32,000 bases of DNA from Bdellovibrionales bacterium (GCA_963692945.1 OY843585.1:720001-752000); one strand, 5' to 3'. Shown: positions 227 to 20,271, numbered from the stretch's first letter. Program-made: numbers and translations. Notes: generated by a model not told the origin, from the sequence alone.

Positions 227-1000
227 ATGGCTCAAATTTTATCTCAACAAGAAATACCTTTGATGCGTTCGGCTTGTAAATTAGCGGCTCAGGTTTTGGT
301 TTTTATTGAACCTCATATTCAACCTGGAATCACTACAGAAAAATTAAACCAGCTTTGTCATGATTTCATTTTATCCCATTCTGCTATACCAGCTCCTTTA
401 AATTACAACGGCTTTCCTAAATCTATATGCACTTCTGTGAACACTTGCATTTGCCATGGAGTTCCTGATTCTACCGTTTTAAAGGAAGGAGATATTATCA
501 ATGTAGATGTGACTTGTATAAAGGATGGATTTTTTGGAGATACCTCTAAAACTTTTTTTGTAGGGGAAGTTACAGAAAAGGCCAAAATTCTGACTGATTG
601 TGCCTTTCAAGCTATGAATAAGGGAATTGAGGCTATAGAGCCTTATGGAACCACAGGTGACATTGGCTTTGCCATAAATAAATATGTGACTAGAAAGGGT
701 TTTTTTCCAGTTTTAGAGATAGGTGGGCATGGTATAGGTAAAAAATTTCATGATGAGCCTTTTGTTCCCTCTGTGGGGAAAAGGGGAAGGGGGGTTGTGT
801 TGCAACCTTGGAGTTGTATAACGGTAGAACCCATGGTCAATGAAATATCTCCAGACATAAAAGAATTTCCCATAAATAATTCTAGTGTGAAATACTACCA
901 CACAATAGATGCAGGTCTATCGGCTCAGTTTGAACATACCATTTTAATTACAGATGGCAGTGATTCTTCCAATTATGAAATTCTAACTCTTCCTGAGTAA
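227..1000 (+). CDS. map: Methionine aminopeptidase, type I
   Basis: 257 aa. Metal-ligand context typical of MetAP-I: GDIINVDV, GFFGD, GGHGIG, TVEPM, QFEHT. Confidence 0.93.
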   Translation: MAQILSQQEIPLMRSACKLAAQVLVFIEPHIQPGITTEKLNQLCHDFILSHSAIPAPLNYNGFPKSICTSVNTCICHGVPDSTVLKEGDIINVDVTCIKDGFFGDTSKTFFVGEVTEKAKILTDCAFQAMNKGIEAIEPYGTTGDIGFAINKYVTRKGFFPVLEIGGHGIGKKFHDEPFVPSVGKRGRGVVLQPWSCITVEPMVNEISPDIKEFPINNSSVKYYHTIDAGLSAQFEHTILITDGSDSSNYEILTLPE

Positions 1001-1203
1001 AAAATGGCAGTGATTCTTCCAATTATGAAATTCTAACTCTTCCTGAATAAAAGATGGCAGTGATTCTTCCTTATCTTAAATTCTAACTCTTCCTGAATAA
1101 AAGATGGCAGTGATTCTTCCAATTATGAAATTCTAACTCTTCCTGAGTAAAAAATGGCAGTGATTCTTCCGATTATGAAATTCTAACTCTTCCTGAATAA
1201 AAG
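954..1203 (+). repeat. 50-bp tandem repeat x5; the first copy is the last 47 nt of map plus its stop codon
   Basis: atggcagtgattcttccaattatgaaattctaactcttcctga(g/a)taaaa(a/g) starts at 954, 1004, 1054, 1104 and 1154. Copy 3 carries the variant ttatcttaaa. Confidence 0.95.
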
Positions 1204-1290
1204 AGAGATTAAAAAAGGAAGCACAAAGTTATTTCTTAAATTCTTCTATTAACTTTCTACATAAAAGAGTTTTCTAGCCATATTATATCT

Positions 1291-1332
1291 TCCTTATCTT
1301 AAATTCTAACTCTTCCTGAGTAAAAGAGAGAT
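1291..1332 (+). repeat. Orphan partial copy of the map-tail repeat (copy-3 variant)
   Basis: tccttatcttaaattctaactcttcctgagtaaaagagagat matches the variant unit and the array's right-hand junction (aagagagat), 90 bp downstream of the array. Confidence 0.85.
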
Positions 1333-1465
1333 GTTCTATAACTTAGAAGCAGGGACTTTTATCCTATTATCAACTCTTTTAAATTTATTTCCGTTTCTTT
1401 TGAAAAAAAATAAACTCATAGAGCTTCTCTTGCTTTTTCTTTTTTTCAAAGATATATAAAATTTT

Positions 1466-2806
1466 ATGTCAATCTCTCCATCTAAAAATCTGGATTACAA
1501 AGTTTGTTCTTCTGCAATGAAGGATAAAAAAGTCTTTCAAGAAATGGCTGTCTTTGGGAGAGAAGAAATCCTAATTGCTGAAAGAGAAATGCCTGGTTTG
1601 ATGGCTTTAAGAAAAGAGTATGGAGCTTCAAAGCCTCTTAAGGGAGCTCGTATTACAGGTTGTCTTCATATGACAATACAAACGGCTGTTCTTATAGAAA
1701 CTTTAAAACATTTGGGAGCAGAAATCAGATGGTCTTCTTGTAACATTTACTCTACACAAGATCATGCGGCTGTAGCCATGGCTCAATCAGGTGTTCCTGT
1801 TTTTGCTTGGAAGGGAGAGACAGAAGAAGAGTATCAATGGTGTATTGAGCAAACGGTTTATGGTTGGGGTGAACAAGGTTTTAATCTTATTATAGATGAC
1901 GGAGGAGATTTAACTCACTATATGCACGAAGAAAAACAGTCTTCTTTGATGAAAAAAGTTTTAGGTCTTTCGGAAGAGACCACAACAGGTATTCAAAATT
2001 TGGAAAAACTTCATAAAAAAAATCAACTTAAAGTTCCTGCTATCAATGTAAATGATTCTGTTACTAAATCTAAATTTGATAATTTATACGGGTGTCGGGA
2101 ATCTTTAGCGGATGGTTTAAAAAGAGCAACAGATGTTATGATTGCGGGTAAAAATGTGTTGGTTGCTGGTTATGGAGATGTGGGTAAGGGATGTGTTCAA
2201 AGTATGCAGGCTTATGGAGCTAGAGTTTTTGTGACAGAAATTGATCCCATCTGTGCTTTACAAGCTCGTATGGAAGGTTATGAGGTTGTTTTATTAGAGG
2301 ATGTTGTAGATAAAATAGATATTTTTGTAACGGCATCTGGTTGTAAAAGTGTCATTTGCAAACAGCATTTTGAAAAAATGAAACAAGGAGCCATTGTTTG
2401 TAACATAGGACATTTTGATGTGGAAATAGATATGGCTTGGCTCCATCAAAACACAGAATCACGAACCATAAAACCACAAGTTAAAATACATAAATTTAAA
2501 AATGGAAGAGAAATTATTGTTTTGGCTGATGGACGTCTTGTGAATTTAGGTTGTGCAACTGGACACTCTTCTTTTGTGATGAGTAACTCTTTTACGAATC
2601 AGGTTTTAGCTCAAATAGAACTTTGGAAGAATCATAAAAATTATCCTTTGGGAGTTTATGTTCTTCCTAAAATTTTAGATGAAAAAGTGGCACGGCTTCA
2701 TTTAGATCAACTGGGTGTGAAGCTTACAAAATTAACCAAAGAACAATCTGAGTACTTGAGTGTTCCTCAAGAAGGGCCTTTTAAACCCAAGCCTTATCGT
2801 TACTAA
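1466..2806 (+). CDS. ahcY: Adenosylhomocysteinase (S-adenosyl-L-homocysteine hydrolase)
   Basis: 446 aa. N-terminal DYKV...EMPGLMALR, the NAD-binding GYGDVGKG motif, and IGHFDVEID and NLGCATGH motifs. Confidence 0.95.
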
Positions 2807-3110
2807 GTCATTTGTTTTGTCCTAAGTTTTTTGCCGACAAGTTTCTAGCTTGTGAACAATCAACAACTAGAGAGTTTTTTTAATTTTATTTTGTCCTATG
2901 TTTTTGCTTTGTCTAAGTTTTTTGCTTTGTCCTAAGTTTTTTGCCGACAAGTTTCTAACTTGTGAACAACCAACAACTAGAGAGTTTTTTTAATTTTATA
3001 TTGTCCTATGTTTTTGCTTTGTCTAAGTTTTTTGCTTTGTCCTAAGTTTTTTGCCGACAAGTTTCTAGCTTGTAAACAATCAACAACTAGAGAGTTTTTT
3101 TAATTTTATA
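2807..3110. repeat. 110-bp tandem repeat, about 2.6 copies, filling the ahcY/hflX convergent spacer; includes the last ~8 codons and stop of hflX
   Basis: cctaagttttttgccgacaagtttcta(g/a)cttgt(g/a)aacaa(t/c)caacaactagagagtttttttaattttat... starts at 2821, 2931 and 3041. ctagagagtttttttaattttata is the reverse complement of the hflX end (KIKKTL-stop). Confidence 0.9.
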
Positions 3111-4262
3111 TTTTTTCCACTTACTGATTTGATGGGAGGGCATTTCTACATAACAAACCGTCCCTTTAGAGCCAGTTTCTTTTTTTTGTATAGTTGTTTC
3201 CCGACTGAGTTCATAAATTTCATACTCTTTGTCTTTGGGGAAGTAAAGTTCTATGGGTTCGTTTAGATTTTCCAAAATCTCTTTCATTTTTAAAAGAAGA
3301 TTTTCAAGATTGTAATTTGTTCTAGCACTAATAGAGATGCGATTTTGGCAATGAGAGGGAGTGATCACTTCTGTTTCTGAAACAAGATCTGTTTTGTTAA
3401 AAACATAGAGGACTGGTTTTTTATACCAACCAAATTCTTCAACAAGTTCATCTACAACTTTAATATGATTGTGCATTTGAGGATTTGAAATATCAATCAC
3501 ATGCAACAAAACATCCGATGTATCTAGTTCTTCTAAGGTGGCTTTAAAAGCGGAAATCAAATTAGGAGGTAAGTCTCTGATAAAACCAACCGTGTCTGTC
3601 ATGACAGCACTGGCAACGCCGGGGATAAAAACTTTTCGTGTTTTAGGGTCTAAGGTCATAAAGGATTGGTTTTTAGTTTCCACATTGGATTTTGTAAGAA
3701 GATTTAAAAGCGTACTTTTTCCTGAGTTTGTATAACCTATAAGAGAGAACGAGGGGATTTTGTTTTTTCGCCGAACCGATCTATGTTGAGAGCGACTTCT
3801 TCTTACTTTTTCTAATCTTTCTTTAACTCGTTTGATTTTTTCTCGGGCTTGTCTGCGATCTATTTCCAAAGCCTTTTCCCCTGGTCCTCTTGAGGCTTTT
3901 CGTCCTCCTTGTCTGGAAAGAGAACCAAGCCATGCACCCACCATACGAGGCATTTGGTCCATAAGTTGTGCCAGTTCCACTTGAAGTTTTCCTTCGTGAC
4001 TTTGAGCTCTTTGTGCAAAAATTTCTAAAATCAGTTGGGTTCTATCTAAAATGGTAACTTTTAAAGATTGTTGTAAGTTACGAGTTTGAACACCTGATAA
4101 ATTGTGGTCAAAAATCACATAGTTTGGTTTGAGACTGCGAACAATAGTTTCTAACTCTTTTTGTTTACCAACACCGATGAGATAAGCTGGGTCTATGGAT
4201 TTTAAATTTTGGAAAAACTTTTCTAGAGGATGTAAGTTTGCAGCTACAGCAAGTTCTGTCAT
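3087..4262 (-). CDS. hflX: GTPase HflX
   Basis: G1 GYTNSGKSTLLN, G3 DTVGF, G4 NKTD, and the HflX N-domain motif GKLQVELAQL. The frame stays open 31 codons upstream of the ATG and encodes KGQTAILFSAV (HflX-like N-terminus). An AAGGAG lies 7 nt before a CTG at 4350-4352, so the true start may be non-ATG at 4352. Confidence 0.9.
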   Translation of the reverse strand: MTELAVAANLHPLEKFFQNLKSIDPAYLIGVGKQKELETIVRSLKPNYVIFDHNLSGVQTRNLQQSLKVTILDRTQLILEIFAQRAQSHEGKLQVELAQLMDQMPRMVGAWLGSLSRQGGRKASRGPGEKALEIDRRQAREKIKRVKERLEKVRRSRSQHRSVRRKNKIPSFSLIGYTNSGKSTLLNLLTKSNVETKNQSFMTLDPKTRKVFIPGVASAVMTDTVGFIRDLPPNLISAFKATLEELDTSDVLLHVIDISNPQMHNHIKVVDELVEEFGWYKKPVLYVFNKTDLVSETEVITPSHCQNRISISARTNYNLENLLLKMKEILENLNEPIELYFPKDKEYEIYELSRETTIQKKETGSKGTVCYVEMPSHQISKWKKYKIKKTL

Positions 4263-4471
4263 TTCTGCGAGGTTTTCTTTAAAAATGGAAGGGGTTCCAT
4301 TTTTTACAGCACTAAATAAAATTGCTGTTTGTCCTTTTTTAATAAGTGGCAGTGTTTATCTCCTTTTTTCTATTTATAATGATAGCAGGGTAGAGGGAGA
4401 TTGAAAAGATAAAAAGGATTGGCATAAAGAATTTTGATTGTAAAAGAAGTTTTATTAAGCCATTTTGTAGT

Positions 4472-4645
4472 TTAAGTTTCAGAAATATTTTTCCATTTTT
4501 CTAAATGTAAAGATCTTGTAATGGAAATAATTTCTTTTCTTACATGTTTATCTGGAATGACTTTTTCTAACTCTTTGATGAGCTGTGTTTTTGATTTTTT
4601 AGAAAAGGCTTTTTTATAATCTCTTTTTGATAGTGGTCGTTTCAT
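4472..4645 (-). CDS. Small basic hypothetical protein (57 aa), divergent from the ParA-like gene
   Basis: ATG at 4643-4645 (minus strand), preceded by AAGAGGA. Translation: MKRPLSKRDYKKAFSKKSKTQLIKELEKVIPDKHVRKEIISITRSLHLEKWKNISET. It is below the ORF-track cutoff. Confidence 0.45.
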   Translation of the reverse strand: MKRPLSKRDYKKAFSKKSKTQLIKELEKVIPDKHVRKEIISITRSLHLEKWKNISET

Positions 4646-4728
4646 CTCTTTATCCTCTTAAAGTTATTTTATCACAATGGGGTTTATTTACAAAATACTT
4701 TTCAGAAAGTCCAGTCTTTGTAGTCATG

Positions 4729-4756
4729 TTGACTTTTTTAAGATTGAATTGATAAT
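4729..4756 (+). promoter_or_regulatory. Possible sigma70-type promoter for the ParA-like gene
   Basis: TTGACT (4729-4734), a 16-nt spacer, then GATAAT (4751-4756), about 110 nt upstream of the ATG at 4869. Confidence 0.3.
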
Positions 4757-4868
4757 GGGGATAATCAATGTTTGTTTTTAATCATAAGTTGATAACTTTT
4801 GGTCTTTCTCTTTGAAGTCATCTATAAATTTATTGACTAAAATTAGAGATGAATATAGGAAGTAATTA

Positions 4869-5888
4869 ATGGAACATATTGTATATTGTATTTGGAACAA
4901 TAAAGGAGGAGTAGGAAAAACATTCTTATCTTTTACTCTTGCATCTGTTTATGCTCAGAAAAATCCTGATAAAAAAGTATTTGTTGTTGATACTTGTCCT
5001 CAAGCTAATCTTTCTGAAATTATATTAGGAGGAAATAGCTCGGGAGCTGTAATTTTGGAAAAATTTATCAATCAGAAAAAAACATTAGGTGGTTATTTTG
5101 ATTCAAGAATTAGAAAACCACATGAAAAAACTGGAAGTGAGTCAGGTTTTATAATACAAACTTGTGAATATAATAAACATTTGCCTAAGAATCTTTACCT
5201 TATAGCTGGTGATCCTAGCTTAGAAATACAGGCTCAGGTGATGAACCAAATTAGTAGCTTAAAGATACCTAATGACAGTTGGAAAAGTGTTCATTTGTGG
5301 GTTAAAGACATAATAGGAACGGCACAGGAGCATCATGGAGGAAATACAACTACATTTATTGATTGCAATCCTAGTTTTTCTGCTTATACAGAGCTCTCCA
5401 TCATTGCTTCAAACAAACTTATAGTTCCTTGCACCAGTGATGGTTCTTCTGCTAGAGCTATAAATAATCTGTTTTTCCTAATTTATGGCCTTGGAAGAAC
5501 AACATTGCAAAAAGAGTATGAAGATGTTAGTTTTGCTAAAAAATCAGAAACTTTTAATTTATCTAAACCGATTCTACATTCTGTTTTGTTAAATAGATCT
5601 ACTCAATATGAGAAGAAAGCAAGTAAAGCTTTTGGTGCGGTTATGAAAGAAATAAGGAGAAGGGTGGAATCTATAAAAACAGAAGATTCAAAATTATTTC
5701 ACAGTGATTTTGATTATTACGATATACCTGATGCACATTCAGTGGCTATAGTTTCTTCTTATCAAGGAAAACCTATAACTCAAATCAGTCATGGGATTCA
5801 TGAGGTGCATGGGACTCGGCCACAAATAAATAAAGAAAACCTAGATAGGCACAAAAAAGCAATAGATGAATTTGTTTTAAAACTTTAA
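4869..5888 (+). CDS. ParA/MinD-family (deviant Walker A) ATPase, orphan, 339 aa
   Basis: N-terminal IWNNKGGVGKT (KGGxxGKT deviant Walker A), DTCPQANLS, and IDCNPS (Walker B-like). There is no adjacent parB. Confidence 0.8.
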   Translation: MEHIVYCIWNNKGGVGKTFLSFTLASVYAQKNPDKKVFVVDTCPQANLSEIILGGNSSGAVILEKFINQKKTLGGYFDSRIRKPHEKTGSESGFIIQTCEYNKHLPKNLYLIAGDPSLEIQAQVMNQISSLKIPNDSWKSVHLWVKDIIGTAQEHHGGNTTTFIDCNPSFSAYTELSIIASNKLIVPCTSDGSSARAINNLFFLIYGLGRTTLQKEYEDVSFAKKSETFNLSKPILHSVLLNRSTQYEKKASKAFGAVMKEIRRRVESIKTEDSKLFHSDFDYYDIPDAHSVAIVSSYQGKPITQISHGIHEVHGTRPQINKENLDRHKKAIDEFVLKL

Positions 5889-5917
5889 TTTTTAAGTTTT
5901 AGATGATTGTCTTTGTT

Positions 5918-6079
5918 GTGGTATTTTTTTACTCTGTCCATATTAGAAGTCATTAACTTTATGTTGTAACAGTGGTATTTTTTTACTCTGTCCATATTAG
6001 AAGTCATTAACTTTATGTTGTAACAGTGGTATTTTTTTACTCTGTCCATATTAGAAGTCATTAACTTTATGTTGTAACA
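5918..6079. repeat. 54-bp tandem repeat x3
   Basis: gtggtatttttttactctgtccatattagaagtcattaactttatgttgtaaca starts at 5918, 5972 and 6026. The copies are identical. Confidence 0.95.
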
Positions 6080-6085
6080 GTGTAA

Positions 6086-6200
6086 ATTAAAATCTGGTGT
6101 AACAGTTTTTGATTTTTGTGATGCAAAAATGAGGTTTATTTTTTGGTTTTTAGTTGTTTAGGTTCTCTTTTATCAGGTTCAACATATGTGACATCATTTT
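6086..6200 (-). repeat. Two juxtaposed orphan gene-tail copies: 6086-6131 copies the 3' end of the 7207-9285 gene, and 6128-6200 copies the 3' end of the 6559-6930 gene
   Basis: 6086-6131 matches 7206-7251 (46 bp, 2 mismatches; encodes HFCITKIKNCYTRF-stop versus HFCVTKIKNCYTSF-stop). 6131-6200 matches 6553-6622 (70 bp, 1 mismatch). Confidence 0.9.
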
Positions 6201-6397
6201 GTGGACTGATCTTGTCTAACAGATTCGTTGTGAGCTTTAATTGCACTTTTCACTTCAGGTTTATTCCAAAGTTCTTTTGCTGTTGCTATCCTATTTTTTT
6301 TACGGAAAAGCCACCAGCTATAATCTGATTCTTGTTCTTTCTTTCCGTTTAATCCTAGTTTTTTTTTAGAACCATTAAAATAAGCCATAAACATCAC
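6194..6397 (-). CDS. Hypothetical small protein (67 aa or shorter)
   Basis: A GGAGAGG lies about 8 nt before the third Met (MAYFNGS..., ATG at 6386-6388). The stop codon lies inside the shared 70-bp tail module. No recognisable family. Confidence 0.4.
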   Translation of the reverse strand: MMFMAYFNGSKKKLGLNGKKEQESDYSWWLFRKKNRIATAKELWNKPEVKSAIKAHNESVRQDQSTK

Positions 6398-6558
6398 CTC
6401 TCCGTTTCATTATATAACAAAAGCAAGAAAAAAAATAGAGCAAATTTCTAAAAAATCAACTTCCCATCTTCATTGAGTTTTTTTCTACATACCAGATTAA
6501 CAAGACTAATAGCTCTTGTGATTGATACAAAAATAAATAGGGTTTATTTTAATGAGGC

Positions 6559-6930
6559 TTATTTTTTGGTTTTTAGTTGTTTAGGTTCTCTTTTATCAGG
6601 TTCAACATATGTGACATCATTTTTTTTGCAGATTTGACTCATATAGACTTCCATATGGCTTAAATGATTTACTTCTATTGTGGTTATCTTACCTTTTATT
6701 CCTGTCATATCTTCTTTTATTTCTGTTATATCTTCTTTTATTCCTGTTATATCTTTTTTCATTCCTGTCATATCTTTTTTCATTCCTGTCATATCTTCTT
6801 TTATTCCTGTTATATCTTCTTTTAAAGGTTTTACTGTATTATCAAAATGATTTTTGATATCATTGATTATAATTCTTTCTCTTTCATCTCTATATTCTGG
6901 TTTTATTCCGTTTCCCATTTTGTTCTCCAC
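6559..6930 (-). CDS. Hypothetical coiled-coil protein with 7 perfect heptad repeats (KEDITGI/KKDMTGM)
   Basis: 123 aa. The 21-nt tandem repeat has register points at 6699, 6720, 6741, 6762, 6783 and 6804. Confidence 0.6.
   Translation of the reverse strand: MENKMGNGIKPEYRDERERIIINDIKNHFDNTVKPLKEDITGIKEDMTGMKKDMTGMKKDITGIKEDITEIKEDMTGIKGKITTIEVNHLSHMEVYMSQICKKNDVTYVEPDKREPKQLKTKK
6690..6830 (-). repeat. Intragenic 21-nt tandem repeat x7 (encodes the heptads)
   Basis: ttcctgt(c/t)atatctt(c/t)ttt(t/c)a recurs with a 21-nt period. Confidence 0.9.
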
Positions 6931-7206
6931 TTTGTTGTTTGTATATTTTATTTATACTCTATTTATCGGTAATGTCAAAGTAAAAATAAATTTAAAATTT
7001 TTAAAAATGAAATCAGCACAATTTATTTGTGTAGAAGATTTAAAAAGTTTTATGAGTGATAGTGTTATTTTTTTAATTGTAAAAAGAATTTATTAAATGT
7101 TAACCTAAAAGATTTAAGTCTGCTTGCTAAATAGCTTATGTAGAGTATTTACTAAAAAGCAATAGATGAATTAAAAAGAACTAAGCAATAAGGAATTAAA
7201 AAAAAA

Positions 7207-9285
7207 TTAAAAGCTGGTGTAACAGTTTTTGATTTTTGTGACGCAAAAATGATTCATGGAGTTGGAAACCATTTCAAAAATATTTTGATTGGCACTACCA
7301 ATAGATGATTTTGTTCCTGAATCTCTAGAACGATAGGTTTGAGGTAGTGTCACTGGTTTTTGATTGGAAGCTAGGGTTCGTTTCCCAAAACCTCCTTGTA
7401 AATAAGAACCACGACTTGTTGTTTTGGATTTTGAACTTGAGCCAAAAAATCTTGTTTTCACGGTTTGCCATGTGCTCATTGTTTCGGAGGGTGTTTCTGA
7501 TGTAGATTTCTGAAGGGCTGAACTGGCAAGATTGTTTTTTGATTCTTCATCTGTTTCCGTCAACTTGTTATCATCATTTATCCCAGGCACTAAGTCTTTT
7601 GTTTTTTTGTCGGTGTCTTCAAGACCATCAGGGGTTTCATCGTCTTTGGCCATTTTGTTTCTTTCTTCAAGGAATTTTTTTAAATCGTATGGGTCGCCGC
7701 CATTGGGTTTGTAAGGATTTCCTGATGGAGAACTTCCTGGTGATTCAGAAGTAGAACTTCTTACATTATATCCAGGTCCTACTTGAGAATAAGAAGGGGA
7801 TTGCGAGGGTAACCCATTGTATGAAGAAGAGTCTCCTTCTCCTGAGCTACCACCTGTTAAAGTTCCTGTTGACGATGGTTTATTAGGGTCTTTAGAGTTT
7901 TTAGCCAAACAAGCTTGTTCTGCATGACTTTTGGATTCTTTTTTTATTCTTTCTTCGTTTTTTTCGCTTAATATTATCTTTTCGCAACTTGGAAAATGAT
8001 CTATTGAAGCTCCTTTTGTAATTAATAAATATTCATCCGTTGATGGTTCATACAATTTTTTAGTAGAACTGCTATCAAAAAATTTATCTTTAATTTGTGT
8101 TAGAATCTCTTTATACTTTATAGAGATGTTCACAATGTGTTTCTCACATTTAGAGTTTTCATTAACGGCATCTTTAAAACTGGAAACATAAAAACACCTT
8201 TTAAATTTGTCACGGAATTGTTCTAGAGCAGTATTACAAGTGTTATGACATTGTTTTACATTAGCTTTACAGATATCTATTCTTTTATTATATATGTTAC
8301 TTTCTAAAAGCTCTTTATTTTTACATTGATGAGGATGAGGATTTTTTATATTTTTTAAGTAAGTATTAAAAGATTTTTTATGTTCACAGTCTTCTTGATC
8401 AAGATTACTGCAACAAGATTTTTTTGTTTCAGGATAGTGACCGCATTTGTATAAAAGAGTGTCGCCTTCTCCCTTATGAGGCTTGAGAAACTTATAGAGT
8501 TCTTTTATACAACCCTCCGGTTCGTTGATGTCGGTGTTACATCTTGCTTCTTTTTCCTCTTTAAGTTTTTCGATTTCTTTATTATATTGTTCTAGAAGAT
8601 TGGTATCGATGTTACAATGATTTATGTATATTTCCATTATTTTTTTAAAATATTCATGTGAACCTACTGTAAAATTTTTAAGTTTCAAACCATCATTAGA
8701 AGCAAAACCATCATGGCATAGATCTCTTGATTTTTTTAATTTGTTCCAATCACTATATAGATGTGTTCCTTCTTTTGGTTTGGGTTTTTTGTCTATCTCG
8801 TTTATCTGTCTGATTGTATTATCAAAATGTTTGTCAATTTTATCATTACAAAGACGTGTTAATTTTTTAAAACTAGATAAAGCCATACCTGCTGATGGTA
8901 TCGGGATATCAATTTTCTCCGTATTGTGTTTATAAACTATTTTATTAAAAATTTCTGTAAACTTTCCTGTAAACCTTCCAGAATTATGTTTTATATTTAA
9001 ATCGTTACAATGTTTATCAAAAAATATTCTATATCTTTGATTTGTGAAAGTAGCACGTTCATCAGTATCCGTATCCAAAAAACCTTCAAAATCTTGCATC
9101 TTTTCTCTTATATCGGTTGTTGTTAAATCAGTCTCCTCCTTAAATATATCTTCATCACTAGGACTAGAATAGAATTTTATTGTATTTATCTTGGGACAGT
9201 CATCACATGCGTTTGCTGAGCTTATAGATAAAAGACTTATCATGAGAAATAAAAAAGGTTTAAAAATTTTTGTAAAAGATAACAT
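7207..9285 (-). CDS. Large secreted cysteine-rich protein with a low-complexity S/T/G/P-rich C-terminal third (hypothetical)
   Basis: 692 aa. Signal peptide MLSFTKIFKPFLFLMISLLSISSANA. More than 30 Cys in residues ~27-460, then a Ser/Gly/Pro/Thr-rich region. No recognised catalytic motif. Confidence 0.7.
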   Translation of the reverse strand: MLSFTKIFKPFLFLMISLLSISSANACDDCPKINTIKFYSSPSDEDIFKEETDLTTTDIREKMQDFEGFLDTDTDERATFTNQRYRIFFDKHCNDLNIKHNSGRFTGKFTEIFNKIVYKHNTEKIDIPIPSAGMALSSFKKLTRLCNDKIDKHFDNTIRQINEIDKKPKPKEGTHLYSDWNKLKKSRDLCHDGFASNDGLKLKNFTVGSHEYFKKIMEIYINHCNIDTNLLEQYNKEIEKLKEEKEARCNTDINEPEGCIKELYKFLKPHKGEGDTLLYKCGHYPETKKSCCSNLDQEDCEHKKSFNTYLKNIKNPHPHQCKNKELLESNIYNKRIDICKANVKQCHNTCNTALEQFRDKFKRCFYVSSFKDAVNENSKCEKHIVNISIKYKEILTQIKDKFFDSSSTKKLYEPSTDEYLLITKGASIDHFPSCEKIILSEKNEERIKKESKSHAEQACLAKNSKDPNKPSSTGTLTGGSSGEGDSSSYNGLPSQSPSYSQVGPGYNVRSSTSESPGSSPSGNPYKPNGGDPYDLKKFLEERNKMAKDDETPDGLEDTDKKTKDLVPGINDDNKLTETDEESKNNLASSALQKSTSETPSETMSTWQTVKTRFFGSSSKSKTTSRGSYLQGGFGKRTLASNQKPVTLPQTYRSRDSGTKSSIGSANQNIFEMVSNSMNHFCVTKIKNCYTSF

Positions 9286-9594
9286 AGCCCTATTATTATA
9301 TCGTCAAAAATAGGAAAAGGAGTTAAAAAATTTATTATATTTCTATTTATAAATTATTTATTTAAATCTATTTGAATGGATTTTTTGAAATTTTATTAAA
9401 TTGGATTCAAATCTCATTTAAAAAGTGATTTTTATCCTTTTAAAAGAGAGGAAAAACAAAAACCGTTCAGTTTTTAAACACTTGCTTTTGTAAAATTAAA
9501 GAAATTGTATTTATAAAGAAGCTTTTCATTGTGTTTTTTTGAAAATCATTTAATATAAATGAGTCTCATTTTGAGACACTTACAAGGAGGTTAT

Positions 9595-10545
9595 ATGGTT
9601 TTATGGGACAAGGATGTTTATCGGGAAGGTTTTAAAAAAACTTTTAGTATGAATTTTTTTAAAACTCTTTTCTTGGTATTTTTTTTAATCTTTGGTTTTT
9701 CTAGTTTTTCTTTAACAATAGATTGTGAAGATGAAAATCATGTAGATAGAAAACTGCAAGAAAGACCTAAAGATCATCTCCTCTTAGTTATGAAAGCCAA
9801 ATGCCTGTTATTAAGGGGCAAAAAAGACGAAGCCTTTAGGTATTTAATAAAAGGGAAAGATCAAAAAGGAATTTACCCTGCTTATATGGTGGCCAGATAT
9901 ATAAAAACCGATGGGACTTTTGAAGATATTGACGACCCAGTTAGACATAGTGAAATTACAGATTCAGCTATAGCTTCTTATAAAGAGGTTATAGATCTTA
10001 TTAAATCCATTCCTAACTATCCTAATGCTATATCAACGGACGGTTCTACAGTGCTTTATGCTCTTTTAGAAAAAGATCATTTATTTGAACTGGCTTCTTT
10101 TTATATGATATCAGTAAGTTATTTTGATAGATATTTTTTGCAAGTCATAGATCATCATGCTCAGCTGGAGCATTCTTCACCGGGTTATGAAGAGGGGACA
10201 GGGACTGGTGCTCCTTTGCTTCCTGTTATTCGGCATTATCAAGGCCCTGTTTACAGTTTAAATACATTAGAAGAGGTCTCCACTCATTGTAGTCAAAACT
10301 CTAATCCCTATAATAAAGAACTTTACGATATATATATAGAACTTTGTAATCATATGAAAAACTTTGTAATGGAGGTTAGAGATTTAGAAAATGAGAGAGC
10401 TCATAAAGCACAAATCTGTAAAGATTTTATAAAATTAGAAGGGGAGTTTTGTGAATCTTATTGGAATGCAGTAGGAGAAATCAAAAAGAAGAGAGATATT
10501 ATTTTAAAAAGAATGGGCGAACTGCTTTCAAAATCTAGCTATTGA
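9595..10545 (+). CDS. Hypothetical secreted or membrane-anchored protein
   Basis: The ORF is open from 9559, but an AAGGAGG lies 5 nt before the ATG at 9595. Hydrophobic segment FFKTLFLVFFLIFGFSSFS. No family recognised. Confidence 0.6.
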   Translation: MVLWDKDVYREGFKKTFSMNFFKTLFLVFFLIFGFSSFSLTIDCEDENHVDRKLQERPKDHLLLVMKAKCLLLRGKKDEAFRYLIKGKDQKGIYPAYMVARYIKTDGTFEDIDDPVRHSEITDSAIASYKEVIDLIKSIPNYPNAISTDGSTVLYALLEKDHLFELASFYMISVSYFDRYFLQVIDHHAQLEHSSPGYEEGTGTGAPLLPVIRHYQGPVYSLNTLEEVSTHCSQNSNPYNKELYDIYIELCNHMKNFVMEVRDLENERAHKAQICKDFIKLEGEFCESYWNAVGEIKKKRDIILKRMGELLSKSSY

Positions 10546-10653
10546 TTCTCATTTTATAGATAATTGATTCCTATTTCATAACAATTGATTCCCATTTTAT
10601 AGATAATTGATTCCTATTTCATAGATAGATCAAATTAAAAAATAGAATCTACA

Positions 10654-10678
10654 AGCCCTCCACAGAGGGCTTTTTTTT
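10654..10678 (+). terminator. Rho-independent terminator-like hairpin (AGCCCTC-CACA-GAGGGCT plus T-run)
   Basis: 7-bp GC-rich stem, 4-nt loop and a T8 tract, downstream of the 9595-10545 CDS. Confidence 0.7.
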
Positions 10679-10706
10679 ATAGATAAATTAAAAAATAGAA
10701 TCTACA

Positions 10707-10729
10707 AGCCCTCCACAGAGGGCTTTTTT
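10707..10729 (+). terminator. Second copy of the same terminator-like hairpin
   Basis: Identical stem-loop followed by T6. Confidence 0.65.
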
Positions 10730-11151
10730 ATTTGCTGAAAAGTTAATTATCCGATTTTTGTATACCATTTTGAAAAGAATAAGCGAGTTGGTTTCAGACT
10801 CCAACTATTGATTCCCATTTTATAGATAATTGATTCCTATTTCATAGATAGATCAAATTAAAAAATAGAATCTACAAGCCCTCCACAGAGAGCTTTTTTT
10901 ATTTTCTGAAAAGTTAATTATCCGATTTTTGTATACCATTTTGAAAGAATAGGCGAATTGTTTTAAAGACTCCAATTATTGATTCCCATTTCATAGATAG
11001 TTGATTCCAATTTCATAATAATTGATTCCTATTTTATAAATAGATCAAATTAAAAAATAGAATCTACAAGCCCTCCACCAGACTGTTTTTTTATTTGCTT
11101 TACGCCGGAATTGTTCTTTCTTTCTTTCTTTTTTTCTTTTAGATTCTCTTT

Positions 11152-11172
11152 CCCTCCACAAGAGGGTTTTTT
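11152..11172 (+). terminator. Related terminator-like hairpin (CCCTC-CACAA-GAGGG plus T-run)
   Basis: 5-bp stem plus T6. The neighbouring copies at ~11068 and ~11253 have lost stem complementarity. Confidence 0.45.
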
Positions 11173-11308
11173 ATTTGCTTTTAGTTAAGTTAGTAATATG
11201 TAATATCTTTTTTTTCTTTCATAAATAGATAAATTTAAAAACAGAATCCACAAGCCCTCCACCAGACTGCTTTTTTTTATAGATAAATTAAAAAATAAAA
11301 TCTACAAG

Positions 11309-11331
11309 CCCTCACAAGAGGGTTTTTTTTT
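11309..11331 (+). terminator. Related terminator-like hairpin (CCCTC-ACAA-GAGGG plus T9)
   Basis: 5-bp stem and a long T-run. It is the last module of the repeat region. Confidence 0.5.
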
Positions 11332-11490
11332 ATTTTAGTAGTAGCTCCTATTGGCATGGTTGTTTGGTTTGGTCAAATAACTTTAAATCTATCGGCTGGC
11401 AAATCTTTAAATAAAGATACAAATTAAAATGAAGAAAAAAAGAAAGTGCTTAACAAAAGAACTTGAAGATCAAATTCTAAGGGGTGCATA

Positions 11491-11850: not shown

Positions 11851-11876
11851 ATAAACAATAAACCTATTAAAATAAA

Positions 11877-12132
11877 TTAGGCTGTTCTCTTTATAAAAAT
11901 ATCTTGCTCTTCTAGTCGGTCAATCATCTGTTTAACAGACATTTTATTAAAAGGCTTACCTTGTCTATTCCTAATGTTCTTATTGTTTAATTCCACAGCC
12001 ATTTTAGAAAGTGATAAGTGACTTAAAAGCTTTAAAGAGTTCACTAGTTCTAAGTCGTATCTTTGAGAAACTGAAAGTGGCTTTACTTTAGTTAATCTAT
12101 CATAATAAAACGATACGATCTAAGTTTTTCAT
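11877..12132 (-). pseudogene. Possible degraded small ORF (helix-turn-helix-like?) downstream of the restriction gene
   Basis: The ATG at 12130-12132 runs into a stop after 10 codons. A different frame is open for ~82 codons (…LSHLSLSKMAVELNNKNIRNRQGKPFNKMSVKQMIDRLEEQDIFIKRTA-stop) but has no ATG before 12002. The span of 256 nt is not a multiple of 3. Confidence 0.2.
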
Positions 12133-13888: not shown

Positions 13889-14113
13889 ATGAAAATATTT
13901 TTATTGTTAGGATTGGTTATTGTTTCTTTTGGTTGTTGGGAAGAAGATTATAATTCTTATTTTCCTCCTGGGCAATCTTTTACATATCCTGATAAGAGCT
14001 TATCTGAAATTCAACTCACTGGTGATTATTCTGTATTAGGAACTAAAGAAACAGGAAAGTATAAGGTTACTGAGAAATATAAAAAAATCAAGAAACTACC
14101 TAAACGTAAATAA
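13889..14113 (+). CDS. Small putative lipoprotein or secreted protein (74 aa)
   Basis: AGAGGG Shine-Dalgarno sequence. MKIFLLLGLVIVSFGC is a signal peptide with a lipobox-like SFGC. Confidence 0.5.
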   Translation: MKIFLLLGLVIVSFGCWEEDYNSYFPPGQSFTYPDKSLSEIQLTGDYSVLGTKETGKYKVTEKYKKIKKLPKRK

Positions 14114-14226
14114 ATGGCACAATAAAACAGAATTGAAGATCAAGATATTTTTTTATAGAGTCTATAAACTTATAGTTGAGTGGCTAAACTATTTATCTCA
14201 GATGGATATTACAAAACAATTTTATT

Positions 14227-15989: not shown

Positions 15990-16134
15990 ACCTACACCTC
16001 CTTTCCAAGTAGATTGTATTATAAATGATCTATTTTTTCAAATTATATTTTAAATTAAGGGAATATAAAAACATTTTTTAAAAAATTTTTCATAGAGATA
16101 TAAAATCTAATGTTGTATAATAAAGGAGTAAAGA

Positions 16135-16227: not shown

Positions 16228-16334
16228 GAGAAGATATAGATAAGTTTTTAGACCAATTAGAAAAAGGTAAAGAGATAAAATAGAAGTCCTATGAAAAACT
16301 TTTATAACTTTTTTGGTAAGGCATATTAAATTTG

Positions 16335-16841: not shown

Positions 16842-16902
16842 TTTATTATTCCTTTATTAGTTCATTAGTTATTTCTGTTTTTTACTTGCTACATACCCCT
16901 AT

Positions 16903-17508
16903 CTAAAAGCCAGGAACAACAGGGGATGGCTTGAACTCTGTCGGTGTAAAAATTTTTGGAAGTGCTGGAGGGTTTCTTCCTCCACTTAATCCTGGATGAG
17001 TGTGTGTAGGTGCAGGATGATTGTGTGGATGATCGTGTGCAGGTGTTGCATGAGTGTGTGCAGTTGTTGCATGAGTGTGTGCAGGTGTTGCATGAGTGTG
17101 TGCAGTTGCAGGATGAGTGTGTGGAGGTATAGAAGCTAAATTTCTCACAACACCACACCTGTTACTCGTATCGGTAGGGGAAGACTTATAAAGTTCACAA
17201 CATTGCTCTAAAGTAACTCCCTCATCTAAAGTAAATTTTGAATCATCTCTTTCAAGACTTAATTCAAAGTTAGCCCCTGTGCTTTTGCTTGGGTCTGTAA
17301 CTTCAATAGGTCTTATCAAATCTTGTGATTTTAAAACTCTTTCAATCTCTTTTTTACAAGCATCATTCGGTCTTGGATCAGGGGGGTTCGTGGCAAGATT
17401 GTTTATGGCTAGATAGACTTTCATTTTAGCCCAATCTCTTTTGTATTTTTTTTGAATTTTAGATTGGGATTGAGACTGAGAAACCAAAACACTTCCCATT
17501 CCCAGCAT
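16903..17508 (-). CDS. His-rich pilin-like (minor-pilin-like) protein; the listed ORF is N-terminally truncated relative to an open frame reaching 17643
   Basis: The frame is open upstream of Met-17508 and encodes ...INNPQG|STLISVLIASVIGTIVMLGMG (prepilin-like hydrophobic N-terminus lacking Glu5). The C-terminus has (AHTHATP)n repeats. The nearest upstream ATG (17655-17657) is out of frame across a G10 tract. Confidence 0.6.
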   Translation of the reverse strand: MLGMGSVLVSQSQSQSKIQKKYKRDWAKMKVYLAINNLATNPPDPRPNDACKKEIERVLKSQDLIRPIEVTDPSKSTGANFELSLERDDSKFTLDEGVTLEQCCELYKSSPTDTSNRCGVVRNLASIPPHTHPATAHTHATPAHTHATTAHTHATPAHDHPHNHPAPTHTHPGLSGGRNPPALPKIFTPTEFKPSPVVPGF

Positions 17509-17625
17509 AACTATTGTCCCTATTACACTGGCTATTAAGACCGAGATTAAAGTTGAACCTTGAGGGTTGTTTATAGGGGATAAGAGTTTGTAAATGAGAA
17601 AAGACTTACATCTTTTGAAGTAAGA

Positions 17626-17635
17626 GGGGGGGGGG
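17626..17635 (-). repeat. G10 (C10 on the coding strand) homopolymer in the 5' region of the His-rich pilin-like gene
   Basis: taagaGGGGGGGGGGtgaaa is the longest G/C homopolymer seen in this AT-rich window. Confidence 0.95.
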
Positions 17636-17853
17636 TGAAAATTTTATTTAATGACATATAAATATTATCGGCTAAATAAGAAAATATTTCAAATATAAAA
17701 ATAAAGAGATCAAATAGTGGGGAATTTTGCAAACTTAAAATAAATTAGCTTGTCCCCTTAAAAACACCTTGCTTTTCAAGCCTTTCAATCATTCGTTTAA
17801 GTTATTATTTTCTACTTTACATCTTACTATTTTTAAAATAGGTATAGGGGGTT

Positions 17854-18615
17854 ATGAACCTACTTATATCCTTACTTATGAACCTACTTATATCCTTATT
17901 TGTCTTTTTAACTATGGCGACGCAAGCTCTATCGCCTCATGATCTTTTAAACCAAGAACTCATTGAGGCATCTAAGCGTGGTGATAAAGCTCAAGTTGAA
18001 CAGTTACTTCATAGAAACGAAATCAGTCTCTATGCTAGAAATAGAGAAGGAAAAACGGCTCTTATATTAGCGTCTCAAAAAGGTCGTGCAGATATTGTTG
18101 AACTGTTGCTCGCTAAAGGATTTGATGTCAATGCTCATGGTAAAAATGCAGTAAAAACGGCTCTTATATTAGCATCTCAAAAAGGCTATACAGATATCGT
18201 TGAACTGTTGCTCAATGCAGGAGCTAATCCTAATGCTCAAAATTTATTGGAAGAAACGGCTCTTATATTAGCGTCTCAAAAAGGTTATAAGAGTATCGTT
18301 AAACTGCTGATTGTTTCCGAAGACATTGATACAGAAATTAAGAATAGGTATAAAAACACCGCTCGCATGTTGGCTCTTCAAAAAGGTCATAAAGAGATTG
18401 TTCGTTTACTTGATGAGGCAAACGTTAAAAATGAGGCAAACGCTACAAAGAACACAACTAGTTTGGACTCGAGAGACTCGAGAGATTGGTGGAATCCGCA
18501 GACCAAGGCAGATGCTACAAATAACACAACTAGTTTGGAACCTAATAAGGCAAGAAAAAGCAATTGCAAAAAATATTTTTTTAGAGCGAACTCTCATTTA
18601 CAAAAACCTCTGTAA
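17854..18615 (+). CDS. Ankyrin-repeat protein with an N-terminal signal or hydrophobic segment
   Basis: 253 aa with four or more ANK units (GKTALILASQKGxxDIVELLLxxGAxxNA). The first 24 nt, including the ATG, are tandemly duplicated (MNLLISLL-MNLLISLF). Confidence 0.85.
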   Translation: MNLLISLLMNLLISLFVFLTMATQALSPHDLLNQELIEASKRGDKAQVEQLLHRNEISLYARNREGKTALILASQKGRADIVELLLAKGFDVNAHGKNAVKTALILASQKGYTDIVELLLNAGANPNAQNLLEETALILASQKGYKSIVKLLIVSEDIDTEIKNRYKNTARMLALQKGHKEIVRLLDEANVKNEANATKNTTSLDSRDSRDWWNPQTKADATNNTTSLEPNKARKSNCKKYFFRANSHLQKPL

Positions 18616-18660
18616 ATAAAGTTTTCAATATCACTGAGTGTTAAACTGTTTGAGCTAATA

Positions 18661-18775
18661 AAAGTGTCTCAATTTATCTCACTAAAAAAAGTGTCTCAAT
18701 TGAAAAAAGTGTTTCACTGAAAAAAGTGTCTCAATTTGTTTTACTAATAAAAGTGTCTCAATTTGTTTTACTAAA
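18661..18775 (+). repeat. Five copies of an aaagtgtctcaat(ttgttttacta) motif between the ankyrin gene and the pilin gene
   Basis: Cores lie at ~18661, 18688, 18706 (variant gtgtttcac), 18724 and 18750. Another copy lies at ~20371. Confidence 0.8.
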
Positions 18776-18867
18776 AAAGCCTTAGTTTATTTGATTCTAT
18801 AAAAAAATTTTTAATTTATGTATGTAATGAGTCATAATTTTATTTTGAACAATAACAAAAGGAGTTA

Positions 18868-19512
18868 ATGATGTTTAACATGAATAAAAAGATTCGTTCT
18901 TGCTTTAGAAAAAATAAAGGATTTTCATTGATAGAATTACTTGTAGTTGTAGAAATTATTGGAATTTTAGTTGCTGTGGCTATACCAACATACAATCACT
19001 ATAAAGTGGATGCCGCTCAATCTTCATTGACAGCCTCTCTACACTCTATCGGGAAAGCTTTTGCTGCTTGTCTTGCATTGAGGTCTTTTAGTAATTGCAA
19101 CAGTCTATCAGAACTAAAAGTAAGTTGTCCGGACTGTACTAAAGAATCCACTGGAAGAACGGCTATACCTTATTGTGTTGAAGCTAAATTACAGGCAGGA
19201 GGAATAAACCATAAGGCATGTATGTCTTCTTCAGGAGGAATTCCTTTAATTACTGGTAACTGGGATAGTCTTTGTAAGAACATGTCAGCAGATTATATTT
19301 GTAATGCTGCAGGTAATGGATACAATGCACGATCTTCTTGTAATCAGATAGGTTGTTCTAACCCATCTGAATCTATCCCATCAGGTTCATGTACAGCAGC
19401 AGTTACTCGTAAATTCCGTAACTGTGGTGATGACAATAATCCTGAAGCTCGCTCAACGGCTAGTAGCTCTGGTGGAAGTTGTGACACTACAACTGGATTG
19501 TGTAGCCAATAA
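18868..19512 (+). CDS. Type IV pilin-like protein, Cys-rich C-terminal domain
   Basis: AAGGAG Shine-Dalgarno sequence. ...FRKNKG|FSLIELLVVVEIIGILVAVAIPTY class III signal. 214 aa, about 14 Cys. Confidence 0.85.
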   Translation: MMFNMNKKIRSCFRKNKGFSLIELLVVVEIIGILVAVAIPTYNHYKVDAAQSSLTASLHSIGKAFAACLALRSFSNCNSLSELKVSCPDCTKESTGRTAIPYCVEAKLQAGGINHKACMSSSGGIPLITGNWDSLCKNMSADYICNAAGNGYNARSSCNQIGCSNPSESIPSGSCTAAVTRKFRNCGDDNNPEARSTASSSGGSCDTTTGLCSQ

Positions 19513-19560
19513 TTGACTTATTGAAAGGTGTTCTCGCATTTTTTTGTTTTTAAGTATTTA
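19461..19560. repeat. ~100-bp dispersed repeat (copy A): pilin 3' end plus an orphan copy of the 3' end of the minus-strand ankyrin gene
   Basis: Roughly 85% identical by eye to 20451-20550. The reverse complement of 19513-19555 encodes KYLKTKKCENTFQ-stop, versus the genuine ankyrin C-terminus KYLKQKKCKNSFQ-stop. Confidence 0.8.
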
Positions 19561-19635
19561 ACCTTAAAAAAGGAATTTGACTTTCTTTTTACAATAGATA
19601 AAAATTAAAAAAAACTGTAAGAAAGGAGTTTTTAC

Positions 19636-20190
19636 ATGAAAAATCTATTAATTATTGTCAGTCTCATATCCTTAGCATCTTGTGAAGGATTTAAAGAATA
19701 TTGGAAGGGAGAACCATCTGAAAAGGTATCTGAAAAAAAATCATCTCAAAAGAAATCATCGTCACGAGATGCTTTACTTAGAAAATATGTGGGAGCAGCA
19801 GCTGCACTTTTAAAATCAGAAGGACAAACCAAAGCTTTTAAAGCTTTTGCTACACCAACATGGTTTCAAAGTCCAACCTATGTATTTGTTGCAGATTTTA
19901 AAGGAGTTATCTATTTTAATGTTAATAAAGATTATCCTAATGGATCCAATGTTTATAATGAAAAAGATTCTAACGGCAAGTTTTTTGTTCAAGAAATGAT
20001 TCAAATTGCAAAAACTACAGGAAATGGCTTTGTAGAATATAGAATAAAAAATCCAGCAACTGGTAAAGTTGAACCAAAAAGGTCTTTTATCAAAACAGTG
20101 GTCTTAAACAACCCTCAACAAACAAAGTTAATCGTTGGTTCTGGTTATTATTACGAGAGTAATACACCTATGGTACCTATCAGTCAGTAA
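19636..20190 (+). CDS. Lipoprotein with a single Cache (sCache_2-like) sensor domain and no output domain
   Basis: MKNLLIIVSLISLASC lipobox. YVFVADFKGVIYFNVN...KDSNGKFFVQEMIQIAKTTGNGFVEYRIKNPATGKVEPKRSFIKTV...VGSGYYY matches the sCache_2 pattern. Confidence 0.7.
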   Translation: MKNLLIIVSLISLASCEGFKEYWKGEPSEKVSEKKSSQKKSSSRDALLRKYVGAAAALLKSEGQTKAFKAFATPTWFQSPTYVFVADFKGVIYFNVNKDYPNGSNVYNEKDSNGKFFVQEMIQIAKTTGNGFVEYRIKNPATGKVEPKRSFIKTVVLNNPQQTKLIVGSGYYYESNTPMVPISQ

Positions 20191-20271
20191 TACACCTATG
20201 GTACCTATCAGTCAGTAATAAACCTATGGTGCCTATCAGTCAGTAATAAACCTATGGTGCCTATCAGTCAT
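20160..20271 (+). repeat. 28-bp tandem repeat x4; the first copy is the last 28 nt of the Cache lipoprotein CDS
   Basis: taata(c/a)acctatggt(a/g)cctatcagtca(g/t) starts at 20160, 20188, 20216 and 20244. The stop codon TAA (20188-20190) is the first triplet of copy 2. Confidence 0.93.

Follow-up and report, generated by a model that had tools for sequence, protein, structure and literature searches.

Tandem arrays at the ends of genes

We have analyzed a stretch of 32 kb from the genome of a Bdellovibrionales bacterium (GCA_963692945.1, OY843585.1:720001-752000; the window, with positions counted from its first nucleotide), in which short tandem arrays begin inside the 3' end of several genes and re-copy their stop codons. 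The G+C content is about 31%, and the cumulative GC skew climbs steadily over the window, which indicates one replication direction throughout. The genes code for methionyl aminopeptidase (map), AhcY, HflX, a ParA-like ATPase, an amidohydrolase, a BglII-type restriction-modification pair with a HEPN/RES toxin, two ankyrin and three pilin-like proteins, a lipoprotein with a Cache domain, and ResB/CcsA, after which come a c7-type cytochrome and a 998-aa Fe-S protein. The closest genomes are uncultured Bdellovibrionales/Oligoflexia assemblies. A scan of genome collections gave relatives with hflX 70-81% identical and few repeats, and a metagenome scan gave distant relatives only (24-51% identity). 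In the relatives used to compare spacers, the Map and AhcY proteins are 85-89% identical to those of the window.

Tandem Repeats Finder (TRF), run with a mismatch penalty of 5, a score of at least 80, a period of at least 15 and overlapping rows merged, detected 13 arrays that make up 7.4% of the window. No array of such kind appeared in 50 first-order Markov (composition-matched) simulations of the same stretch. Nine of the 13 merged intervals lie partly or wholly outside coding sequences (CDSs) and represent eight independent arrays. The source genome is small, AT-rich, Bdellovibrionales-like and unusually rich in short tandem duplications. Four of the arrays contain the stop codon of a gene and run downstream from it, as the initial annotation of the stretch had reported: TRF and a repeat finder place them at 954-1202, 2803-3112, 10541-11333 and 20158-20275, over open reading frames (ORFs) that end at 1000, 3087 (minus strand), 10545 and 20190.

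The first belongs to map (227-1000, plus strand), a type I methionyl aminopeptidase gene (Pfam Peptidase_M24, 1.6e-46), and consists of 5.0 units of 50 nt (954-1202, plus strand; TRF score 428, 91% matches). Unit 1 is formed by the last 15 codons of the gene and its stop; the unit comprises 44 nt of coding tail, the TAA and about 3 nt, and translates as DGSDSSNYEILTLPE* (asterisks stand for stop codons). Units 1 and 4 are alike, as are units 2, 3 and 5, which indicates that the array grew in blocks. One more copy of the tail, the sixth, is dispersed (1288-1327, plus strand; 98% identical to unit 3, of which it is a variant reading ...SSLS*ILTLPE*) and sits in about 210 nt of unexplained extra spacer (1203-1410). 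Beyond it about 49 nt of the ancestral map-ahcY spacer are retained (1417-1465, plus strand), aligning with the spacers of the related genomes L007, L008 and L009 and abutting the ATG of ahcY, with about 410 extra nt between the map stop and this remnant. The complete spacer measures 465 nt in the window versus 43-51 nt in relatives.

In the case of hflX (3087-4262, minus strand, stop codon 3087-3089; Pfam GTP-bdg_N/M and MMR_HSR1) the array has 2.8 units of 110 nt (2803-3112; TRF score 571, 95% matches) and occupies the whole convergent spacer between ahcY and hflX, its far end adjoining the ahcY stop (2804-2806). Each unit contains three 18-nt sub-repeats and 26 nt of hflX, namely its last 7 codons with 2 nt of the eighth and the stop. 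The spacer is 280 nt long, versus 20-25 nt in L009 and L010. Both tails have counterparts elsewhere. The map end ...DGSDSSNYEILTLPE is orthologous to ...DDAYEILTLPKSS in L003, the Map C-terminus being conserved also with L007, L008 and L009, and the hflX end is orthologous to those of L007 and L009 (KWKKYKIKKTL* vs KWKDYMIKKS* in L007). By these alignments the map and hflX tails are ancestral, and the ancestral spacers measured no more than 20-51 nt.

The third locus is more complex. It follows a plus-strand CDS of 328 aa (9559-10545) without a Pfam or NCBIfam match, for which a start at 9595 had been proposed and is here corrected to 9559. The array as a whole (10496-11333, plus strand) starts with the real tail of the gene (10496-10545), and TRF resolves nested periods of 22, 53 and 171 nt over 10541-11333. 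All its parts lie on the plus strand: a 22-nt sub-array from the ATTGA stop onward (10541-10627), 53-nt modules identified by a terminator scan (10625-10729, 10848-10900, 11040-11092 and 11217-11333) and two pseudo-tails recognized in translation (10762-10811 and 10933-10982). The stretch 10749-10811, with the first pseudo-tail, translates as ILKRISELVSDSNY* and the real tail as ILKRMGELLSKSSY*; the second (10920-10982) has decayed and contains an internal stop. The 53-nt modules are strong intrinsic terminators, with four intact hairpins (fold z = -5.46), and three terminator copies are mutated.

At these three loci the tails prove to be real coding sequence with its stop, as originally described, with an overlap of only 26 nt at hflX. 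The fourth, the Cache-domain lipoprotein gene (19636-20190, plus strand; Pfam dCache_2/sCache_2), departs from the description. The conserved domain ends at E174 (codon end 20157), the position equivalent to that at which the homologue P0124 stops, and the array of 4.2 units of 28 nt (20158-20275, plus strand; TRF score 201, 96%) begins right after it. Unit 1 adds a tail of 10 residues, absent from homologues, and the working stop, TAA at 20188-20190, is found in unit 2, because the 28-nt unit shifts the reading frame. In a hypothetical one-unit state the protein would end in ...ISH* (20272-20274) rather than in ...ISQ*. This duplication, lying wholly within the reading frame, is tolerated only as the shifted frame yields an immediate TAA. 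The protein has no close homologue in the protein database besides its own record. Its best database matches are Cache-domain proteins of 291-303 aa with 31-38% identity, and the best alignment with P0124 (291 aa) covers only the second half of the latter.

Comparison with related genomes

A second array-rich genome, L008, comes from a different sample and has 9.3% of its 20.8 kb in arrays, against 0-2.1% in L001, L003, L007, L009, L010, L012 and L013. The window and L008 are no closer kin to each other than either is to the repeat-poor L007 and L009. Three L008 arrays span stop codons, those of an amino-acid permease (minus strand, 62 nt x2.7, with 32 nt in the CDS), TauE (107 nt x3.4, 93 nt in the CDS) and a trypsin-like protease (51 nt x3.6, 7 nt in the CDS), and none of these three genes carries an array in the sampled relatives. 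What seemed a fourth case, at a 68-aa ORF (9645-9851), was discarded as spurious by comparison with the SWIB gene of L007.

Spacers measure 229-465 nt in the array-rich genomes versus 18-156 nt in their relatives. Between TauE and the next gene, for instance, the relatives have 18 nt where L008 has the array plus about 190 nt; this unexplained sequence follows the array, and what is left of the next gene comes after it. In other genomes the map and TauE units match nothing but the one orthologous tail, and no other match to the array units was found in 13 other loci. Since elsewhere the units match only one orthologous tail and the relatives' spacers are short, the arrays are recent and lineage-specific. 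Their inheritance from a common ancestor was rejected, as those of the window and L008 lie at different genes and have no unit in common. Read from these alignments, what was recently duplicated is an ancestral gene tail together with a few up to some tens of bases from the spacer.

Several L008 genes are altered (4287-5686, 6908-7555, 8210-8304 and 9177-9626). The fumarase is split, a 282-aa gene is fragmented, the SWIB gene is frameshifted and the 5' part of BolA is duplicated. This reflects either gene decay or errors of a contig with about 2x coverage.

Position of the arrays relative to stop codons

In the initial annotation, the unrelated unit lengths were taken to argue for a process acting at gene ends. 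When the window and L008 were pooled, 7 of 15 non-coding arrays (47%) spanned a stop codon. As a reference we simulated random duplications with the observed unit lengths, placed on gene maps. With the collapsed maps of the window and L008, 18% of the non-internal events spanned a stop (p = 0.010 vs 7/15); with the compact maps of L007, L009 and L010 the figures were 22% stop-spanning, 24% start-spanning, 9% spanning both and 45% intergenic. Under this uniform placement, then, the excess at stops is nominally significant. It is not when start-spanning events are removed, as 33% of the arrays are then expected over a stop versus 47% observed (p = 0.19), and most of the stop excess is thus predicted by the compact gene map. 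The real asymmetry is the lack of out-of-frame arrays over start codons: there are none among the 15, against 24-33% expected (by our own binomial estimate, a probability of about 0.003-0.02).

A rule of frame applies inside genes. The seven recent intragenic arrays have, without exception, periods that are multiples of three (21, 21, 24; 45, 75, 30, 30), for which the probability by chance is about 5e-4, and the non-coding periods fall in every residue class (22, 27, 28, 40, 41, 47, 50, 51, 53, 54, 61, 62, 70, 107, 110 and 171). Among the stop-spanning arrays, the fraction of the unit lying in the CDS is 0.14, 0.24, 0.25, 0.52, 0.87, 0.94 or 1.0, and the other end of the unit can fall as early as 2 nt before the stop or as late as about 170 nt beyond it. 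Since both vary, no boundary is fixed. The affected genes lie on both strands, and arrays are found as well in 5' regions, in spacers away from stops and in gene interiors. With arrays off stops, in both orientations and of such variable limits, a process directed at gene ends is not required for the pattern, and the re-copied stop is best understood as a side effect of where the genome tolerates duplications. The accompanying remark that arrays always extend downstream and leave the CDS intact describes the four loci of the window correctly, but it is also what selection alone would leave.

A probable origin in local duplication and selection

We consider it probable that the arrays arose in a lineage-specific burst of local, microhomology-type tandem duplication that was then filtered by selection. 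The source genome and, independently, L008 would have acquired a raised rate of local head-to-tail duplication of about 20-170 nt, likely through slippage during replication, or template switching, at microhomologies of a few bases, and the arrays would then enlarge by unequal exchange between units. Duplications would land anywhere, and those breaking genes would be purged, so that within genes only in-frame ones should persist and outside them any period. As the ancestral spacers had only about 20-50 nt, a duplication of 50-110 nt usually had to straddle a gene boundary. If it ran from the last codons past the stop, the first copy of the gene would remain untouched, and the extra tails would be neutral because they have no promoter, ribosome-binding site or start codon. 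Duplication of a start codon would instead keep the ribosome-binding site and the start, giving expressed N-terminal fragments that are presumably purged. There is precedent for such filtering in microhomology-mediated tandem duplications in yeast, with events also in Escherichia coli, where the events that survive in essential genes preserve the frame or lie toward the 3' end (PMC8639346).

Most arrays of the window come within 1-6 nt of a whole number of units, over or short. The exceptions are the 27-nt array (18647-18778), with a remainder of 15 nt, and the 110-nt array, with 90 nt. Together with the 5-nt overlap of two fused orphan tails (6084-6200) and the block-wise growth of the map array, this would be in keeping with slippage or template switching and later unequal exchange, though the large partial units of L008 described below are not. 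By analogy with Portiera of Bemisia tabaci (see below) and with flap-processing mutators, known in yeast (rad27) and in E. coli (polA 5'-nuclease mutants), a replication or repair defect is an obvious candidate for a possible cause of the raised duplication rate.

Several observations speak against this account. The pooled sample is small, 15 non-coding arrays in 53 kb of two genomes, one of them a contig with about 2x coverage, and the source genome is represented by 32 kb only. Against the uniform null (18-22% expected) the stop excess keeps a p of 0.01-0.03, and the missing start-spanning arrays are explained only through a presumed selective cost. Start-spanning repeats do exist in relatives, among them a 45-nt one in L013 (possibly in-frame) and in-frame ones in L012 and L013. 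Large partial units (17-44 nt in L008, 90 nt in the 110-nt array) are not predicted by simple microhomology duplication, and about 200 nt of unexplained sequence lie beside two arrays. All seven L008 arrays end in such partial units (e.g., 6360-6723 and 13936-14117). The partial units and the unexplained sequence suggest multi-step template switching or later indels.

Dispersed gene tails and other arrays of the window

Orphan gene tails in dispersed form, also noted in the initial annotation, are real. Two fused ones are found on the minus strand at 6084-6200, with the translations HFCITKIKNCYTRF* and NDVTYVEPDKREPKQLKTKK*. One (6084-6132) copies the tail of the gene at 7207-9285 (o692) at 96% and the other (6128-6200) that of the gene at 6559-6930 (o123) at 99%, and they are joined at a 5-nt AATGA microhomology. 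The o692 tail that was copied matches its orthologues.

The other case involves the Cache gene, which is flanked by duplicated copies of a pilin/ank2 junction (19461-19559 and 20452-20547, an 85% match). On the left, the real tail of a pilin-like gene (18868-19512, plus strand) precedes an orphan ank2 tail (19513-19559, in minus sense); on the right, an orphan pilin-like tail (20452-20505) precedes the real tail of ank2 (20506-21354, minus strand). The orphan pilin tail is in turn preceded by a copy of the pilin upstream region (20361-20441). The 27-nt repeat AAAAGTGTCTCAATTTGTTTTACTAA, present about 4.6 times upstream of the pilin-like gene (18647-18778), has one further copy (20361-20390) before this remnant of a second pilin copy, whose CDS has been deleted.

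Four non-coding arrays of the window contain no gene stop. The first (2-126, 40 nt x3.1) ends 100 nt upstream of the map start codon (227). At 5918-6082 there is an array of 54 nt x3.1, its units 100% identical, which starts 30 nt beyond the ParA-like stop. The 27-nt array (4.6 units, plus strand) lies between an ankyrin gene stop (18615) and the pilin-like start (18868), and the last (23848-23942, plus strand; 47 nt x2, 100% identical), located in a divergent spacer, ends 1 nt before the resB ATG (23944). Within genes we found an in-frame array of 21 nt x6.3 in o123 (6693-6824, minus strand), a 21/33-nt one in the CDS at 16903-17508 (16993-17128, minus strand) and an in-frame 24-nt x2 duplication over the ATG (17854) of an ankyrin gene (17852-17898, plus strand), the only array of the window that touches a start codon. 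The ankyrin repeats themselves (18051-18306) form an in-gene array that was not counted as recent.

The spacer between hflX and o692 (4263-7206) measures 2944 nt, versus 129-392 nt in L007, L009 and L010. Its extra DNA contains the ParA-like ATPase gene (4869-5888), then three 100% identical 54-nt repeats, which might form a centromere-like partition site instead of a neutral array. In the self-comparison of the window all repeats are direct, with partners no more than 1.7 kb apart, except for one pair at 5.9 kb. A 69-nt direct repeat with 77% identity (11867-11935 and 17735-17800) brackets a 5.9-kb block that codes for the restriction-modification pair, the HEPN/RES toxin, a pilin-like protein and a His-rich repeat protein, and its copies may be island borders. 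A run of ten G (17626-17635) in the divergent spacer between the CDS at 16903-17508 and the ankyrin gene is, in a genome of 31% G+C, a possible slippage-prone tract.

At the respiratory end of the window we made comparisons with L012 and L013, two repeat-poor genomes recovered by a ccsA search. In both, the counterpart of the 998-aa Fe-S protein is followed by NrfD and ActD genes, a set that we read as an alternative-complex-III-like cluster. Both have an in-frame duplication of 30-33 nt at the ActD N-terminus, spanning the ActC stop and the ActD start (16719-16789 in L012, 16669-16734 in L013). The ccsA gene of L013 (10001-11546) is in two ORFs of 403 and 123 aa, possibly a frameshift or a pseudogene.

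Alternative explanations

The positions of the arrays might reflect where duplications arise and not which ones survive, if a mutational process were aimed at the 3' ends of genes. Polymerase pausing or termination, R-loops or replication-transcription encounters would stall the fork there, and template switching would re-copy the tail. There are seven arrays over stops and no out-of-frame one over a start, and the boundary-crossing duplicates of the window (map, hflX, o692, o123 and pil1/ank2) all contain a stop and none a start. Three more arrays start 11-32 nt past a stop (5918 and 18647 in the window, 12178 in L008), and among the placeable arrays only one lies in a divergent (5'-5') spacer. 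However, a process tied to gene ends is at odds with units that have 14-100% of their length in the CDS and end somewhere between 2 nt ahead of the stop and about 170 nt past it, and with genes being hit on both strands despite the single replication direction indicated by the GC skew. In-frame intragenic arrays and arrays in 5' regions exist, most units have neither a terminator nor a stable hairpin (z between -0.8 and +1.4), and the excess is gone (p = 0.19) if start-spanning events are selected against. On balance we regard such a process as unlikely. Its more specific form, in which fork stalling at transcription-termination zones led to tail-specific template switching and arose independently in two of about eight related genomes, strikes us as more doubtful still; if true, the asymmetry between stops and starts would be mutational, not selective.

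The arrays could also have been kept for a function, as terminators or insulators, 3' untranslated or regulatory modules, iterons, or a store of alternative C-termini. The 53-nt modules after the gene at 9559-10545 are indeed strong terminators, three perfect 54-nt repeats right after the ParA-like gene could serve in partition, 27-nt repeats lie upstream of a pilin-like gene, and unequal exchange within the map array could swap the end of Map (for ...SSLS*). The amplification of terminator modules, one of the explanations first put forward, fits the locus at 10.5-11.3 kb; as a general model it was rejected, since hairpins of this kind occur at that single locus only. In the map, hflX and Cache units no GC-rich hairpin precedes a T-run (z between -0.8 and +1.0), these and the 54-nt and 47-nt units are no more stably folded than shuffled sequence, and a comparison with Rfam at gathering thresholds yielded nothing in the window. 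The units are also unrelated to one another, the same loci are array-free in relatives whose proteins are 85-89% identical, and copies are decaying (the internal stop of the second pseudo-tail, the three mutated terminator copies). As for a reservoir of C-terminal variation, also suggested at first, nothing supports it, and map and hflX are housekeeping genes in which variable ends have no obvious use. Single arrays may have a selected function (the terminator modules, the 54-nt and the 27-nt repeats), but as an explanation of the whole pattern we find function improbable.

Mobile DNA could leave similar footprints if elements inserted in the 3' end of a gene and brought a replacement tail, so that direct tail repeats remained, a reading that would apply to the dispersed tails and possibly to some of the arrays. 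A block of 1.1 kb has a 49-nt tail repeat on either side (6084 and 7204), a 99-nt repeat flanks the Cache gene (19461 and 20452), which has no close homologue in relatives, and the hflX-o692 spacer has 2.9 kb extra with the ParA-like gene included. Yet there is no integrase, transposase or inverted repeat in or near these blocks: among the 20 larger ORFs searched against Pfam none has an integrase or transposase domain, and of the ORFs between tail copies the Cache protein was in that set and those at 6194-6397 and 6559-6930, compared with NCBIfam only, gave no match. Next to the second copy of the pilin tail the region upstream of the pilin gene has been copied as well, and this argues for duplication followed by deletion. 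The tandem units are locus-specific, with none elsewhere in the window or in the 13 other loci. We hold this origin to be very improbable, and a single mobile element as the source of all arrays was rejected, in agreement with the initial annotation, because the units are unrelated, all direct and locus-specific, and elsewhere only the single orthologous tail is found. Finally, that an assembler expanded or invented the repeats is scarcely credible, in spite of the two arrays with 100% identical units (5918-6082 and 23848-23942) and the label of about 2x coverage on the L008 contig, given that most arrays have diverged units (91-96%) and a nested structure that assemblers do not create, that the same architecture appears at different genes in two independent samples and that the arrays are much shorter than long reads.

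Comparison with known repeat-rich genomes

The likeness to Ehrlichia ruminantium suggested at the outset is sustained at the level of repeat density. A TRF survey (PMC3287509) gave 6.3% for this species, 0.7% in Anaplasma marginale and 0.38% in E. coli, and our 7.4% (window) and 9.3% (L008) are only roughly comparable with these values, as the survey used the basic TRF mode with a mismatch penalty of 7 and left overlapping rows unmerged. Both are small AT-rich genomes with non-coding arrays of minisatellite size, expanded intergenic regions and locus-specific units. The intergenic tandem repeats of E. ruminantium vary in copy number (Collins et al., 2005; Frutos et al., 2006; summarized in PMC10710844), and it is this variation between strains that defines the condition there. 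The two also differ in phylum, in gene content (here respiratory and pilin genes) and in unit length (22-171 nt vs about 150 nt), and only here can the origin of the units from ancestral gene tails be demonstrated, by comparison with repeat-poor relatives. Repeats and duplications in E. ruminantium reportedly truncate or duplicate parts of genes as well.

Portiera aleyrodidarum of Bemisia tabaci offers a similar contrast between one repeat-expanded lineage and a compact relative. Its intergenic regions are filled with repeats, a change attributed to altered mutation input after the loss of dnaQ, mutL, ruvC and other genes (Sloan and Moran, 2013; PMC3673631), but they are mostly 7-bp microsatellites with a few large identical repeats, not units of 20-170 nt built from gene tails. 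Like Wolbachia, a host-associated, ankyrin-rich genome in which variable-number tandem repeats (VNTRs) between genes, with units of about 100-140 nt, expand and contract, the genomes studied here have intergenic arrays; Wolbachia, however, has few VNTR loci per genome, and no description of these as gene-tail copies is given (PMC3287509).

With the microhomology duplications cited above (PMC8639346) the arrays share the head-to-tail arrangement, lengths of tens to hundreds of nt and, in most arrays of the window, what may be homology of a few nt at the borders. Those events are rare, subclonal and of the laboratory, while the ones described here are fixed, have 2-6 copies and make up 7-9% of the sequence, and the L008 arrays and the 110-nt array lack the small remainders that the model predicts.

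Repeats of the mycobacterial interspersed repetitive unit (MIRU) type, and those resembling repetitive extragenic palindromic (REP) sequences or miniature inverted-repeat transposable elements (MITEs), also form tandem spacer units, of 40-100 nt, and may overlap the stop of the upstream gene. They are sequence families present at many loci, in contrast to arrays that each have their own unit derived from the adjacent gene. The same unit at many unlinked loci was not found here: the self-comparison gave local copies only, and the 13 other loci gave none beyond the one orthologous tail.

Implications

These genomes represent a new lineage with the repeat-rich, small-genome condition known from E. 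ruminantium, and such genomes are rare. For annotation they call for caution, as orphan tails are easily called small genes or pseudogenes. They are also a natural illustration of survivorship bias, in which untargeted mutation plus selection can give a striking positional pattern. The origins of the arrays can be read directly, with an ancestral tail and a tiny spacer, then duplication, then expansion. A profile from 2023 still lists the mechanism of E. ruminantium plasticity as an open question (PMC10710844), and here the cause can be searched for by comparing the replication and repair genes of array-rich and array-poor genomes. The main value of this group lies in providing a comparative system for the source of such instability.

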